64,000 nt of DNA, taken from NCBI GenBank assembly GCA_038896555.1, contig JAWACZ010000004.1, forward strand, positions 4,792 to 68,791. The letters are read 5' to 3'. Both the position numbers and the translations under genes were made by a program. Below the pieces are notes generated by a model. That model searched no databases and was not told where the DNA came from. It worked only from the letters and a program-made list of their open reading frames with translations. Positions 5,795 through 11,217 of the stretch are shown in pieces. Source of the DNA: Candidatus Caldarchaeum sp. (GTDB lineage: Archaea > Thermoproteota > Nitrososphaeria_A > Caldarchaeales > Caldarchaeaceae). The first letter of the stretch is position 1. Each line of letters starts with the position of its first letter.

Positions 5795-6559
5795 GTGACC
5801 CTTGCCGGAAAAGCCATCCGTCTTAAACGCATATTCCAAGCCGACGGACGGAGCCTAATCTTTGCATTCGACCACGGTTCTTTCATGGGGCCGGTTAAGG
5901 GTTCTGAGAGGCCTTCGGAGATTCTCGCCAAAGTCGTGGCGGCTGGAGTCGACGCGGTGATGACAAGCCTGGGCTTGCTAAAGATGTACGCGTCCTCTCT
6001 GGCGAGGAAAAACTTGGGCTGGATACTGACTCTTCAAGACAAATCCCCCTCGACAATACCGTGGAGCGTCAAAGCAGCTTCGAACCATGGAGCCGACGCC
6101 GTCAAATATTTCGTCAAAATTGGAGGCGAAAACGAGCGGCAGGAGCTTGAGACGCTCTGGGCCCTGTCTGTTACGGCAGCCGATTATGGAATCCCTGTTC
6201 TCGCTGAGATGTATCCCGCCAAGCCGTCCATGGCTTCAGCGGTTGAAATCTCTAAAATGGCTAGAATAGGTGCCGAGTATGGGGCCGACTTCATAAAAAC
6301 TATGTACACCGGCGGTGTGGAAAGCTTCAGATACGTCGTCCGCTCGTGCCCTGTGCCGGTGGTTGTGCTGGGGGGCGAGTTTATGGAGTCTGACACAGAG
6401 GTTTTGCGGATGGTTTACGACAGCCTATCCGCCGGAGGAGCTGGGGTTGCTTTCGGCAGAAACATCTTCCAACACCCCAACCCTGAGAAAATCACAGAGG
6501 CTCTCTACGCGCTAATCCATGGAGGGCTTTCTCCTGAAAAGCTTTTGCCGCTGACCTAA
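5795..6559 (+). CDS. class I aldolase of the DhnA/FbaB family (archaeal fructose-bisphosphate aldolase or ADH synthase AroA')
   Basis: IFAFDHGSFMGPV and ADFIKT (Schiff-base Lys) signatures of the DhnA-type TIM-barrel aldolases. Confidence 0.7.
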   Translation: MTLAGKAIRLKRIFQADGRSLIFAFDHGSFMGPVKGSERPSEILAKVVAAGVDAVMTSLGLLKMYASSLARKNLGWILTLQDKSPSTIPWSVKAASNHGADAVKYFVKIGGENERQELETLWALSVTAADYGIPVLAEMYPAKPSMASAVEISKMARIGAEYGADFIKTMYTGGVESFRYVVRSCPVPVVVLGGEFMESDTEVLRMVYDSLSAGGAGVAFGRNIFQHPNPEKITEALYALIHGGLSPEKLLPLT

Positions 6560-7197
6560 GCTTTGTCGCGTGGTCTGGAAGCTCTCACAATCCATGGAAC
6601 CCACACGCTGCTCAAAGCCTTCGCCCTGTGGATCGTGTTCAACACAACGACTGTGGGAGCTAAGCTGAACCCCATGTGAAGGACGTTATAGGCCGCTGTG
6701 AAAAGCAGAACCAGAAACAGGCCTTGTAGGTCTGATGCAAGACGTAGGCCGAGGAAGGCGGAAAGGGTTGCTGTCGCAAAGTTCAGAAACTCTGGAAACA
6801 TCACAACCAACACCACATAGTTTGCCGCGGTCATCACAACGACCCTTAACACCGTCCCGACAACCGCGCCGGCTCCAACCATCGGCCCCATGCCTCTCAA
6901 GCTCAGCAGACGTGACCCTGCCCAAAAGCCTGCAACAGACGACAAAACCGCTAAGAACTTCATAGTAGGCCCTATAGGGGTGAACGCGCCCACCACAAGC
7001 AGCGCAAGATAGTAGATGAGCGCGGCCAGCATACCTGAAGAAGGTCCAAACCCAAGCAGGGCGATGAAGACAGGTATCTCAGCCGGGTCGAACCTGAGGT
7101 AGGGAACGGGGGGGAACGGGAAGCTCAGCGGCAGTACTGCGAGGACCAAGGCAAGAGCGGCCATAGAAGCCCCTGAGGTCAAAGACGTAAGCCTCAT
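6556..7197 (-). CDS. integral membrane protein, possibly ECF-transporter S (substrate-capture) component
   Basis: About 6 predicted TM helices and a PYLRFDPAEIPVFIA segment reminiscent of ECF S components. No EcfA/T genes adjacent. Confidence 0.4.
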   Translation of the reverse strand: MRLTSLTSGASMAALALVLAVLPLSFPFPPVPYLRFDPAEIPVFIALLGFGPSSGMLAALIYYLALLVVGAFTPIGPTMKFLAVLSSVAGFWAGSRLLSLRGMGPMVGAGAVVGTVLRVVVMTAANYVVLVVMFPEFLNFATATLSAFLGLRLASDLQGLFLVLLFTAAYNVLHMGFSLAPTVVVLNTIHRAKALSSVWVPWIVRASRPRDKA

Positions 7198-7346
7198 CTC
7201 CGATGACGGCCGGATGCTTCCTTTTTATTAAACGATGCGTAGCTACAAACAACCTTAGTTGACATGTTAGCCAGGACGTGGGCAAGGCGATTAACTTTGG
7301 TGTTCCCGCCATCCCTTAAATAGAATTTGTTCGATTTCCCAGGAAG

Positions 7347-8504
7347 ATGAATGTAGCGGACATAATGTTAACCGACTTTCCACGGGTTTACGACAACGAG
7401 CCTTTAACGAAGGTTCTAGGCCTGTTTGCTGAGAAGAAAGCCGATGTAGTTGTTGTTCAGAACAAGGAAAACGACAGGCTTGTCGGTGTTGTTACCAAAA
7501 GGTCTATGCTCAAGCCGAACCTTAACCCTTCAAAGGTTCCAGCGAGGACGTTGGCTGTAAAAACCCCACGGTTAAACCCGGAGGACGCGCTACACAAGGC
7601 TGCTAAGTTTATGATTGAAAGGAACATGAAGGCCTTGCCTGTAACCGACTCAGGAAAACCTTTAGGACTTGTGACGGTGGCAGACGTGGTTCTAAACTCT
7701 CACGATGCTTTGAGAAAAATAAGCGTGTCAAAAGTGATGACACGTGAGGTGATATCCATTGACGCTAAGGACACGATAGGAAGAGCTATATCTGTGATGC
7801 GTGACGAAGGCGTTTCAAGGCTTCCGGTTCTGGACAGAGAGAGGCTCGTGGGGATTGTTACAGTTACTGACATCGTTGAGAAGGTTGTCAAACCTCGGTT
7901 GAAAAATTCCTGGGGTGATGTTGTTGGCGAAAAAGTCAGAACCCTCAGCAACCCTGTGAAAAGCATTATGACAAGGGATGTCATGACGGTTCAGCCTTCT
8001 GAAAACATAGTTGAGGCAGTACGCAGGATGAAGGAGCATGGGTTCTCTTGTTTGGTTGTTACAGAGAGGCATAGAGTGGTTGGTATCTTTACTTTAATGG
8101 ATGCTTTGGAGCCCGTCGTGGCGCAGCTTCAAGAGACCGAGAGAAACATAGTTGTGGAGGTTAGCTACAAGATGGACAGAGTTGACGTGGATGATAAGGA
8201 GCGGGTGATGGAGGTTGCCGACCGTTTCGTAAAAAGGTTTAGGAAAACGCTTGGTAACGGCGTCCTCAGCCTTTATTTCAAGGAGCACAGGGAGAGACAT
8301 GGCGACCTGAGGCTGATACACTGCAGGGCACGGCTCAACTCCGACAGGTTTCAGTTCGTAGGCGTTGGAGAGGCTTGGCGACCAGACCTAGCGGCTCGGA
8401 CAGCTTTGAAAGTTATTGAAAGACAGTTTCTCGTGAAGAAAGAGCTTGCGTCCCAGTATCCTTTTGGAAGAGAGTTTTTCGAAAGCCTTGCCGAATCCTA
8501 CTGA
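7347..8504 (+). CDS. CBS-domain protein (4 CBS motifs = 2 Bateman modules) with C-terminal HPF/RaiA (ribosome hibernation factor, S30AE)-like domain
   Basis: Four repeats of the CBS pattern (..VGVVT..D.., ..LGLVTVADV.., ..LPVLD..LVGIVTVTDI.., ..CLVV....VVGIFTLMD). The last about 110 aa align in pattern with bacterial HPF/YfiA (M-x-vdvdd..v.e...DRf.K......LSLYFKEH...LRLIHCRARL....F..VGEA...DLAARTAL.VIERQ..K). Confidence 0.7.
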   Translation: MNVADIMLTDFPRVYDNEPLTKVLGLFAEKKADVVVVQNKENDRLVGVVTKRSMLKPNLNPSKVPARTLAVKTPRLNPEDALHKAAKFMIERNMKALPVTDSGKPLGLVTVADVVLNSHDALRKISVSKVMTREVISIDAKDTIGRAISVMRDEGVSRLPVLDRERLVGIVTVTDIVEKVVKPRLKNSWGDVVGEKVRTLSNPVKSIMTRDVMTVQPSENIVEAVRRMKEHGFSCLVVTERHRVVGIFTLMDALEPVVAQLQETERNIVVEVSYKMDRVDVDDKERVMEVADRFVKRFRKTLGNGVLSLYFKEHRERHGDLRLIHCRARLNSDRFQFVGVGEAWRPDLAARTALKVIERQFLVKKELASQYPFGREFFESLAESY

Positions 8505-8680
8505 CCCTCGCCCATATCTTTCAACATTGCAAAGTAGTCTTCTTCATCCATCTCAACGATAAAAGAGCCCACATACCCGCATGAAACACATCTGTAGACT
8601 TTCCCCAAATATCCGCCGAGGTAGAGGTCGAGGGTTGTTTTCCTACATACGGGACAGACCTGGACGTTTTTCTTTTTCAC
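8498..8680 (-). CDS. small zinc-ribbon protein (CPVC...CVSC)
   Basis: 60 aa, two CxxC pairs; overlaps the stop of the upstream Mrp gene (probable operon). Confidence 0.5.
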   Translation of the reverse strand: MKKKNVQVCPVCRKTTLDLYLGGYLGKVYRCVSCGYVGSFIVEMDEEDYFAMLKDMGEGQ

Positions 8681-9807: not shown

Positions 9808-10290
9808 TCACATGTTGTTGACGGTTTTCCAGATCAGGTCGTCTACGTGGTGTAGGTTTTTTACCACACGGCCGTGGGTGGCCTCGGCTGCTTCAACGGA
9901 GCTTATCAAAGCCTGCCCTATTGCCAACGGCTTCGAATACATGTCGTCCCTAACCACGACCAAGCTGCCTTTCTCGAAGGCGTCCATGCATGTAATGCCT
10001 GGTCTCATTACGTCTGCTCCCGAAGCAATTTTCGGAACAGCTCCGCGGTCAACGTGGACGCATGGTAGCCTGTCTATTATGCGGGCGTTAGCCTCGGTAA
10101 GCGCTGGGAAAGTGTTTTCACCTATCATCACGAAGGAAAAGCCTGCCGTGAAGATGAGCTTTACTTTGCCCACCTCGACGGTAGTGACTCCTTGTTTCAG
10201 AATTTTTCTGATGTTCTCACCTTCGAGGAACGGGGCCAGCCGCATGGTCAGCTCAGCAACTTCTGCCGACGACAGGGTACGACGCCTCAA
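9808..10290 (-). CDS. PUA-domain RNA-binding protein (pre-PUA + PUA)
   Basis: C-terminal PUA signature (VVVRDDMYSKPLAIGQAL). The six-frame ORF runs on to 10488 but that portion overlaps tRNA-Leu. I took the first plausible start downstream of the tRNA, a TTG at 10290; the alternative is ATG at 10245. Confidence 0.55.
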   Translation of the reverse strand: MRRRTLSSAEVAELTMRLAPFLEGENIRKILKQGVTTVEVGKVKLIFTAGFSFVMIGENTFPALTEANARIIDRLPCVHVDRGAVPKIASGADVMRPGITCMDAFEKGSLVVVRDDMYSKPLAIGQALISSVEAAEATHGRVVKNLHHVDDLIWKTVNNM

Positions 10291-10367
10291 CGTGCGGAAC
10301 GCTTGAACCCAGCTTAAAAACCAGTCTGTAAAAATCAAAATACCGCGTGAAAGCCTCTTATGCCGAG

Positions 10368-10452
10368 GCGGGGGTTGCCAAGCCTGGTCAAAGGCGCAGG
10401 GCTTAGGACCCTGTCCCGAAGGGGTTCGTGGGTTCAAATCCCACCCCCCGCA
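10368..10452 (+). tRNA. tRNA-Leu (anticodon UAG), long variable arm, no intron
   Basis: Acceptor GCGGGGG/CCCCCGC, anticodon stem-loop CAGGG-CTTAGGA-CCCTG, 14-nt variable arm, T-arm GTGGG-TTCAAAT-CCCAC. Confidence 0.85.
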
Positions 10453-10803
10453 CACGGTTAACAGCTGATTAACCATGAATTTTTCCATGAGAGACCTTGG
10501 TTATGCAGTCATATGGTCTAAGTCTCGACATCTTCACCGAATATGACTAAAAGGTCTCATCCTCGAAGACACGGTTACGCAGCGGATGTGAAGTTTGGGC
10601 TGGCGGCTGTCTTTTCAGAATCCTCTCCTAAACATCTGTATAACTAGAAGCTCGGTGACAACAGGCGGCAGAGAGTTGAACAGCTGGTTTATCATAGCCA
10701 TTTCCGGGGTTTTCTGTCTTCTATTTCGGAGCTCTGAAAAGAAACCCTCACAGCATGAACAGATGTCTCCAGAGTCTGTGGATTGGTCAGCTAGTGAAAG
10801 CCG

Positions 10804-11217
10804 CTACTTTAACGGAACGTACATGCTGCTTCTTGTTGCGCCTACTCCAGCCCTGCCGTGGATGACTCTCTTGTTTGTGATTACGTATTCACCAAGCCGG
10901 TGTCCAATCATCTCAGGAGTTATCTCTACTGGTTGGAACTCTTTGCCGTTGTGGACGTGAATCGTCAAACCAACCATTTCAGGCAGTATGAACATGTCTC
11001 TGCAGTGTGTTTTGACGGGTTTCTCAGGCTTCTGACCCATCTCCAAAAGCTTCCTGTATTTCCGTATTTTGAAGAGAAGCTTAGACTGCGCCGGGGTTAA
11101 ACCTTTCTTGTAGAGGCTGCGTCTAGCTCGGCTGGGCAGTAGCTTTATGAAAGAATCCATGCTCATCGCTTTTATCTGGTCGAGCGTGTACCCCCTGTAG
11201 GTAAACTCTCTCACCAT
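10804..11217 (-). CDS. rps19: 30S ribosomal protein S19 (uS19)
   Basis: [24 protein letters not shown] signature. Confidence 0.9.

Follow-up and report, generated by a model that had tools for sequence, protein, structure and literature searches.

A Candidatus Caldarchaeum protein joining a CBS tetrad to an HPF/RaiA-like domain is very probably an ortholog of HibA, a ribosome hibernation factor of archaea

Introduction

Does an archaeal protein in which four CBS motifs are followed by a domain resembling the bacterial ribosome hibernation factor HPF represent a new system, and is it likely to act on the ribosome? The question is raised by a gene on contig JAWACZ010000004.1 of Candidatus Caldarchaeum sp. 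(assembly GCA_038896555.1), located in a stretch of 64,000 nucleotides that was analysed as a whole and is called here the window. The original prediction, made from the letters of the window, did not know this architecture as a described archaeal system. In fact, it was published by several groups between October 2025 and April 2026 under the names HibA, Hib and AHA, and the Caldarchaeum gene is an ordinary ortholog of this already described family.

HibA was reported by Madru et al. (Nat Commun 2026; PMC13324472), whose preprint used the name Hib, in Thermococcales (accessions: Pyrococcus abyssi PAB1, Q9UYR4; Thermococcus barophilus, F0LKU5). It consists of four CBS domains (residues 1-269) and a C-terminal HPF/RaiA-like domain (residues 270-392). 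[quoted passage not shown] HibA inhibits translation in vitro, and its C-terminal domain is required for this effect; in T. barophilus, deletion of hibA doubles the regrowth lag and lowers the 70S ribosomes by about 60% (PMC13324472). The family was found in 47% of archaeal genomes, and Caldarchaeum subterraneum is one of the 22 Caldarchaeales entries in the genome set used by the authors (PMC13324472). In Haloferax volcanii the family was independently named AHA; there the HPF domain lies at the 30S site known from bacterial HPF, and the knockout has phenotypes, a regrowth lag among them (preprint, PMC12934967).

With HibA/AHA, the HPF/RaiA hibernation domain extends beyond bacteria and plastids and is physically joined to an AMPK-gamma-like nucleotide-binding module. 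The family is relevant to the questions of whether ribosome hibernation goes back to LUCA and of how the ribosome is informed of the energy status of the cell. This case was already made in 2025-2026, by cryo-EM and genetic work on Thermococcales and Haloferax; the gene studied here adds one more uncharacterised ortholog, from the thermophilic, uncultured Caldarchaeum.

The gene and its protein product

The gene and the parts of its product are the following, with coordinates given in the window.

7347..8504, + strand: hibA/AHA-family gene, 385 amino acids and a stop codon, read from the first in-frame ATG
7347..8129, + strand: CBS module, residues 1-261, with its four CBS motifs arranged as two Bateman modules (Pfam, AlphaFold2, Foldseek)
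8142..8462, + strand: HPF/RaiA-like domain, residues 266-372, putative plug of the 30S mRNA/tRNA channel by homology
8382..8456, + strand: helix alpha-2, residues 346-370, including AARTALKVIERQFLVKK, the segment with detectable similarity to bacterial RaiA/HPF
8463..8501, + strand: C-terminal tail, residues 373-385, with an extra short helix (residues 374-384 of the AlphaFold2 model, pLDDT about 60)

The coordinates and length of the open reading frame agreed exactly with those originally given. A protein from a metagenome-assembled genome, also attributed to 'Candidatus Caldarchaeum sp.' (P0001), has the same sequence (100% identity) along all 385 amino acids, and this full-length identity supports the start codon. 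Its database label is only 'CBS domain-containing protein'.

The Pfam family PF00571 covers four CBS stretches of the protein (E=2.4e-45, 153 bits as compared to a cut-off of 24). In the AlphaFold2 model of the whole protein, which has a mean pLDDT of 85, a disc of four CBS motifs (pLDDT about 90) is followed by a separate C-terminal domain. The four CBS motifs, or two Bateman modules, that had been read from the sequence are therefore present both in the Pfam match and in the model. When the full-length model was compared with known structures by Foldseek, the result was dominated by the CBS tetrads of SriA-D, MJ1225, AMPK-gamma and Dri (E from 1e-22 to 1e-16). HibA was not listed in this search, the library of which ends at 8 April 2026, and the HibA entries were released later. 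By homology, residues 1-261 would be the part of the protein that docks on the large subunit and binds adenylates.

Conservation was evaluated on an alignment of 56 full-length homologs (A1) and on one of 21 diverse C-terminal domains (A2). Full-length homologs are present in Caldarchaeales, Nitrososphaerota, Bathyarchaeota and Halobacteria, and C. subterraneum carries one such ortholog (P0030). Caldarchaeales, the former Aigarchaeota, are placed in Nitrososphaerota by NCBI and in Thermoproteota by GTDB.

The C-terminal domain

The C-terminal part of the protein had been said to follow the HPF/YfiA pattern closely, and residues 270-385 were expected to match the Pfam family PF02482. No such match was obtained: PF02482 did not match the full protein at E<=10, and the last 135 residues, searched alone against Pfam and NCBIfam, gave zero matches at E<=10, PF02482 included. 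The HPF identity of the domain was tested by family-wide scans, by a family profile and by fold comparison.

In the family-wide scan, PF02482 weakly matched 12 of the 21 orthologous C-terminal domains, with a best E value of 3.6e-05, and no other family recurred. The profile built from these domains (A2), searched against all PDB sequences, retrieved 9L96_a (5e-28) and 9SR9_H (2e-21), together with marginal matches to the RaiA/YfiA and HPF chains of E. coli (E=0.07-0.4). Every RaiA/HPF match involved the same segment, profile positions 65-105 being aligned to RaiA/HPF positions 51-91. In the printed profile alignment the family consensus '...AArealdriERQllesK', which corresponds to the helix AARTALKVIERQ..K, lies on '...YTAINELINKLERQLNK' of RaiA, so that the helix singled out in the original prediction does correspond to alpha-2 of HPF. 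For this helix, profile positions 66-103 fall on residues 52-89 of E. coli RaiA. At least 96% of the 56 family members retain A353, E358 and R359 of the helix.

Since CBS tetrads had prevailed among the fold matches of the full-length model, the C-terminal domain was folded and searched separately. The AlphaFold2 model of residues 262-385 alone had a pLDDT of 87.4 and a pTM of 0.76. Both this model and that of the whole protein show a b-a-b-b-b-a arrangement with a short terminal helix, the core elements being b(268-275), a(281-302), b(305-318), b(321-332), b(336-343) and a(346-370). When the isolated domain was compared with the PDB by Foldseek, the top 27 consecutive chains were all HPF, RaiA, pY, PSRP1 or RafH proteins (E from 1e-06 to 1e-03; best TM 0.81), and unrelated folds ranked below all of them. 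The predicted fold is therefore not of the ACT or unrelated ferredoxin-like kind that had been named as an alternative. Compared with double-stranded RNA-binding domains (dsRBDs), the HPF-family matches scored at least 3 Z units higher and covered 94-114 residues as against about 70. The core of the domain is basic (23 K+R vs 16 D+E, pI 9.9), which is consistent with rRNA binding.

The likeness of the C-terminal domain to HPF/RaiA is real, but it is a likeness of structure and not one of closely matching sequences; as judged on the predicted structures, the fold match is unambiguous. As to the close agreement first claimed, the motifs were found where they had been placed and their correspondence to HPF was right, whereas the sequence similarity was overstated, the identity to bacterial HPFs being 8-20% in the structural alignments.

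The domain therefore has the same fold as bacterial HPF, RaiA (YfiA, pY) and plastid PSRP1, with an alpha-2 that can be aligned in sequence, but its sequence identity to them is 5-20% and it fails the PF02482 model. It also differs from the bacterial proteins in that alpha-2 is longer, two archaeal insertions are present and the extra helix is found at the terminus. Bacterial HPF is either a stand-alone protein of about 95-115 amino acids or, as long HPF, an N-terminal HPF domain followed by a C-terminal dimerisation domain, whereas the HPF-like domain of Caldarchaeum is itself C-terminal, comes after a CBS tetrad of 261 residues and lacks the C-terminal domain of long HPF. With the Pfam threshold failed and a different domain context, the Caldarchaeum protein is outside bacterial HPF/RaiA in the narrow sense; the binding site would, by homology, be common to both. 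Because PF02482 misses the HPF domain, genes of this kind continue to be annotated as 'CBS domain-containing protein' or 'IMP dehydrogenase'.

Relationship with HibA and AHA

A phmmer search matched the Caldarchaeum protein end to end (query residues 3-381, target residues 6-388) with the PDB chain 9SR9_H, a protein of 392 amino acids (E=4.6e-57, 197 bits). The matched HibA chains belong to entries 9SR9-9SRF and 9T7H which, according to the data availability statement of PMC13324472, contain P. abyssi HibA on the 70S ribosome. The C-terminal domain alone also matched HibA, with an E value of 9e-12. Residues 6-388 of P. abyssi HibA (Pa-HibA) were rebuilt from the phmmer alignment and then aligned globally with the Caldarchaeum protein. 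Over 375 columns the identity of the two sequences is 32%; it amounts to 33% for the CBS module and to 30% for the HPF domain, with short gaps only and no large insertions or deletions.

The two proteins are therefore collinear and similar in size (385 vs 392 amino acids), with four CBS motifs followed by the HPF/RaiA domain. [quoted passage not shown] Both are present without gaps in the Caldarchaeum protein, where RHGDLRL stands opposite KFRGVHL, and the lengths of the insertion segments are constant in 54 of the 56 family members. Besides these insertions of equal length, the Caldarchaeum protein retains the CBS3/CBS4 aspartate pair. Apart from the low sequence identity, the two proteins differ in origin, HibA coming from Thermococcales and the present protein from an uncultured Caldarchaeales lineage.

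Every defining feature of HibA/AHA that sequence and model can check was found in the Caldarchaeum protein, and its domain architecture, fold, full-length homology and conserved hallmark residues were all established directly on it. We consider it very probable that the gene encodes the Caldarchaeum ortholog of HibA (Hib/AHA), the factor by which archaeal ribosomes are put into hibernation. The collinear homology to HibA also argues for the view, expressed in the original prediction, that the combination of CBS tetrad and HPF/RaiA-like domain makes an archaeal ribosome-silencing factor. An architecture discovered by means of cryo-EM had thus been recognised from the letters of the sequence.

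AHA shares family and two-module architecture with the Caldarchaeum protein. The haloarchaeal members of AHA type are about 405 amino acids long, are about 28-31% identical to it and have a CBS3 loop of 43 rather than 18 residues. A further PDB chain, 9L96_a (406 amino acids, 'CBS domain-containing protein'), was matched by phmmer over both modules (E=5e-37), and 9L96 probably belongs to the same subgroup as AHA; a literature search with this PDB code found no relevant paper.

The adenylate site and the CBS3 loop

Two features of the second half of the CBS module are relevant to the comparison.

7851..8108, + strand: CBS3/CBS4 region with the G-h-h-T-x-x-D ribose-binding motifs G169...D175 and G246...D252, predicted adenylate site
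7896..7949, + strand: extended loop after CBS3, residues 184-201 (RLKNSWGDVVGEKVRTLS), counterpart of the 'PTC loop' of HibA (P. abyssi residues 190-207)

G169, D175, G246 and D252 are invariant in 56 out of 56 family members. In contrast, the ribose-binding motif of CBS1 is degenerate, with Ser53 at the position of the aspartate, and D113 of CBS2 is conserved in only 61% of the 56 members. This invariance of the CBS3/CBS4 motifs, as compared to the degeneracy of CBS1 and CBS2, agrees with the CBS3/CBS4 nucleotide site of HibA and AHA. The Caldarchaeum protein is predicted to bind an adenylate, preferentially AMP, at its CBS3/CBS4 junction.

In HibA, the loop formed by residues 190-207 imitates the CCA ends of tRNAs in the PTC (PMC13324472); the counterpart of the long CBS3 loop in AHA was named 'loop 3'. 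The Caldarchaeum loop RLKNSWGDVVGEKVRTLS aligns with RFKAQYGELAGEKIPPFS of Pa-HibA, which has the same length of 18 residues, and 8 of the 18 positions are identical, a G...GEK motif being common to both proteins. The loop is 18 residues long in 49 of the 56 family members and 43 residues long in five, which are haloarchaeal. Within it, all 56 members have G194, and at least 93% of them have G190 and E195. Residues 186-197 are the only segment of the AlphaFold2 model of the free protein with a pLDDT below 50, a disorder that fits a loop ordering only on the ribosome. As judged from the alignment, the CBS3 loop of the Caldarchaeum protein would be equivalent to the loop that HibA inserts into the PTC.

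CBS-only ribosome factors and alternative identities

CBS tetrads are also found in archaeal ribosome factors that consist of CBS domains only, namely Dri (Pyrobaculum calidifontis, 9E6Q/9E7F), SriA-D (Methanosarcina acetivorans, 9ZNF-9ZNI) and ARC-A/ARC-P (Methanolobus). The Caldarchaeum protein has in common with them the tetrad, as seen in the Foldseek matches to the SriA/B chain 9znf_4 (E=1.7e-22) and to Dri (E=1e-16), as well as the long loop after CBS3; like HibA, these factors bind functional sites of the ribosome. However, they have no HPF/RaiA domain: Dri is made of two CBS tetrads, and Sri and ARC are stand-alone tetrads with small occlusion elements. The sequence similarity of the Sri and Dri chains to the Caldarchaeum protein is confined to the CBS region and reaches at most 58 bits, as compared to the 197 bits of HibA. 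Factors of the Dri/Sri/ARC type and HibA/AHA are reported to exclude each other in most genomes. We rejected membership in Dri, Sri or ARC for a protein that has a single tetrad and an HPF-fold domain. ARC-A/ARC-P, in particular, was set aside as a distinct, HPF-less CBS system.

A CBS tetrad might also belong to a regulator that never meets the ribosome, acting on transcription like HhpR (CM-3) or in the manner of AMPK-gamma, with the HPF-like domain as a generic RNA- or protein-binding module. Such a role would be in line with a partial match to the NCBIfam model of HhpR (E=2e-17), with the structural similarity of the tetrad to AMPK-gamma and MJ1225, and with HibA pull-downs that reportedly recover DNA replication and recombination proteins. 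The HhpR match (NF053603), however, reaches 63.3 bits as compared to a cut-off of 520 and involves CBS residues only, and neither HhpR nor AMPK-gamma contains any HPF domain. The full-length score of HibA, well above that of any CBS-only protein (at most 59 bits), and the advantage of HPF-type folds over dsRBDs along the whole C-terminal domain point in the same direction, and we regard a non-ribosomal role as very improbable. Still less credible, to the point of being negligible, is that the gene encodes a fragment of a metabolic enzyme, that is a dehydrogenase of the IMP or acetoin type. This identity would be suggested by names, since the homolog P0026 is called 'Inosine-5'-monophosphate dehydrogenase' and the PDB molecule name of 9SR9_H is 'Dehydrogenase', and by a partial match to TIGR01302 (E=7.7e-16). 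The latter stops at 58 bits, where the cut-off is 481.5, and profile positions 86-203, to which it is limited, are the CBS subdomain only; the chain of 9SR9_H is HibA itself under a legacy annotation. The TIM-barrel catalytic domain is absent from the Pfam and NCBIfam results and from the AlphaFold2 model, and without a catalytic domain the identification as IMP dehydrogenase, or as any dehydrogenase, is refuted. The HibA/AHA assignment is therefore retained.

Proposed mode of action and the question of an adenylate gate

Ribosome binding, inhibition of translation, preservation of 70S ribosomes and AMP binding are known from orthologs only, and from these we infer the same role for the Caldarchaeum protein. 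By analogy with HibA and AHA, the basic domain with HPF/RaiA fold would plug the mRNA/tRNA channel and the decoding centre of the 30S subunit, while the N-terminal CBS tetrad would sit on the 50S side, over the A, P and E tRNA sites, with the CBS3 loop able to enter the PTC. A single polypeptide would in this way clamp the idle 70S ribosome and block translation, and the functional sites of the ribosome would be shielded from degradation in stationary phase or under stress.

The 'energy-gated' silencing that the original prediction had proposed can be hypothesised for the HibA/AHA family. In such a scheme the AMP-bound form would silence ribosomes, ATP at CBS3/CBS4 would release them, and the energy charge would set the hibernating fraction. 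Invariant ribose-binding aspartates in CBS3 and CBS4 are compatible with it, as is the preference of the CBS module of HibA for AMP (Kd 12 uM) over ADP (65 uM) and ATP (113 uM) (PMC13324472). Ribosome-bound AHA carries two AMP molecules, as compared to the one nucleotide of HibA, and the level of AHA is constant across growth phases (PMC12934967), which points to post-translational control. On the other hand, saturating AMP or ATP left the binding of HibA to the 70S ribosome and the conformational landscape of the complex largely unchanged, and native HibA complexes were nucleotide-free (PMC13324472). Release triggered by ATP has been demonstrated for ARC-A/ARC-P only, which are different factors devoid of an HPF domain. 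Taking these results together, we hold an adenylate gate to be possible but rather doubtful. If it existed, a sensor of the AMPK-gamma type and an HPF plug would be directly coupled within one polypeptide; the question is no easier to address with the Caldarchaeum protein than in the existing model organisms.

Genomic context and promoter

No further CBS or hibernation-type genes were found in the window by phmmer and tblastn. The hibA gene stands alone. Upstream lies a divergent gene for the S component of an ECF transporter; on the downstream side there are a convergent ORF of 60 amino acids resembling a zinc ribbon and a gene for an Mrp/NBP35 Fe-S carrier, beyond which follow a gene for a PUA protein, a tRNA-Leu gene and a ribosomal protein cluster (uS19-uL2-...). 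The order ADH-ECF-hibA-Mrp-PUA is kept in a Caldarchaeum relative with 67% identity and holds within the genus only. No conserved hibA operon was found, the neighbours being unrelated in C. subterraneum and in a Thaumarchaeota metagenome-assembled genome. Since synteny is lost outside the genus, the context carries no functional signal, and a functional link of hibA to its neighbours, including the nearby uS19 gene, was rejected for the same reason.

A scan for sigma-70 promoters and terminators, which is uninformative for an archaeon, gave no more sites than shuffled controls. A candidate promoter element was instead read from the sequence.

7316..7322, + strand: TTAAATA, resembling a TATA box, with its centre about 28 nt upstream of the ATG

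The position of this element, together with the divergent gene upstream and the convergent genes downstream, suggests that hibA may be transcribed as a leaderless or near-leaderless monocistronic mRNA.

HPF domain and homologs of HibA

The HPF domain of the window protein (8130-8501, + strand) is missed by the bacterial HPF/RaiA model of Pfam (Ribosomal_S30AE, PF02482), which gives a weak match in the C-terminal domains of 12 of the 21 relatives scanned. In the precomputed annotations of all homologous proteins collected (P0001-P0090), CBS is the sole Pfam entry. For these reasons, members of the family carry names such as "CBS domain-containing protein", "Inosine-5'-monophosphate dehydrogenase" and "Dehydrogenase".

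The first of these names is also the one deposited for a second full-length homolog of solved structure, the 406-aa chain a of PDB entries 9L96, 9L98, 9L9C and 9L9V. The top PDB match to the C-terminal profile of the family is 9L96 chain a (E=5e-28); no paper citing any of the four entries was found in the literature library searched.

In the alignment of 56 full-length homologs, the PTC loop that follows CBS3 has 43 residues in five members, as compared to the usual 18. These five proteins are haloarchaeal and about 405 aa long (compare 9L96 chain a). The 43-residue loop is an expansion, specific to this lineage, of the element that inserts into the peptidyl-transferase centre.

Genomic context of hibA

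The features around hibA that are considered here are the following (window coordinates, except for the last):
8498-8680, - strand, 60-aa zinc-ribbon-like ORF with two CxxC pairs (CPVC...CVSC)
9808-10488, - strand, PUA-domain ORF, 226 aa in the mechanical listing
10368-10453, + strand, tRNA-Leu (anticodon TAG), inside the PUA-domain ORF
10804-11217, - strand, uS19 gene, first of the uS19-uL2-...-uL3 ribosomal protein cluster
6122-6643, + strand, NUDIX hydrolase gene in L003, the hibA locus of a Thaumarchaeota MAG (GCA_025058225.1)

The ribosomal protein cluster extends to about 14031, with 2.3 kb between uS19 and hibA. The uS19 protein of P. abyssi has an extended C-terminal tail, to which one of the HibA insertions binds. 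Since the adjacency is not kept in the more distant relatives L001 and L003, the proximity of the two genes is probably a coincidence.

In L003, the NUDIX hydrolase gene and the stop of the hibA homolog share 4 nt. This arrangement suggests that, in that lineage, a nucleotide-metabolising enzyme and an adenylate-binding hibernation factor may be co-transcribed.

The 60-aa ORF converges on hibA, whose 3' end it overlaps by 7 nt, and adjoins an Mrp/NBP35 gene. It has no Pfam match and is not called in the relative L004. The N-terminus of the 226-aa PUA ORF ("...GGWDLNPRTP...") is the tRNA gene read from the opposite strand; the true PUA gene probably encodes about 161 aa, matching L004.
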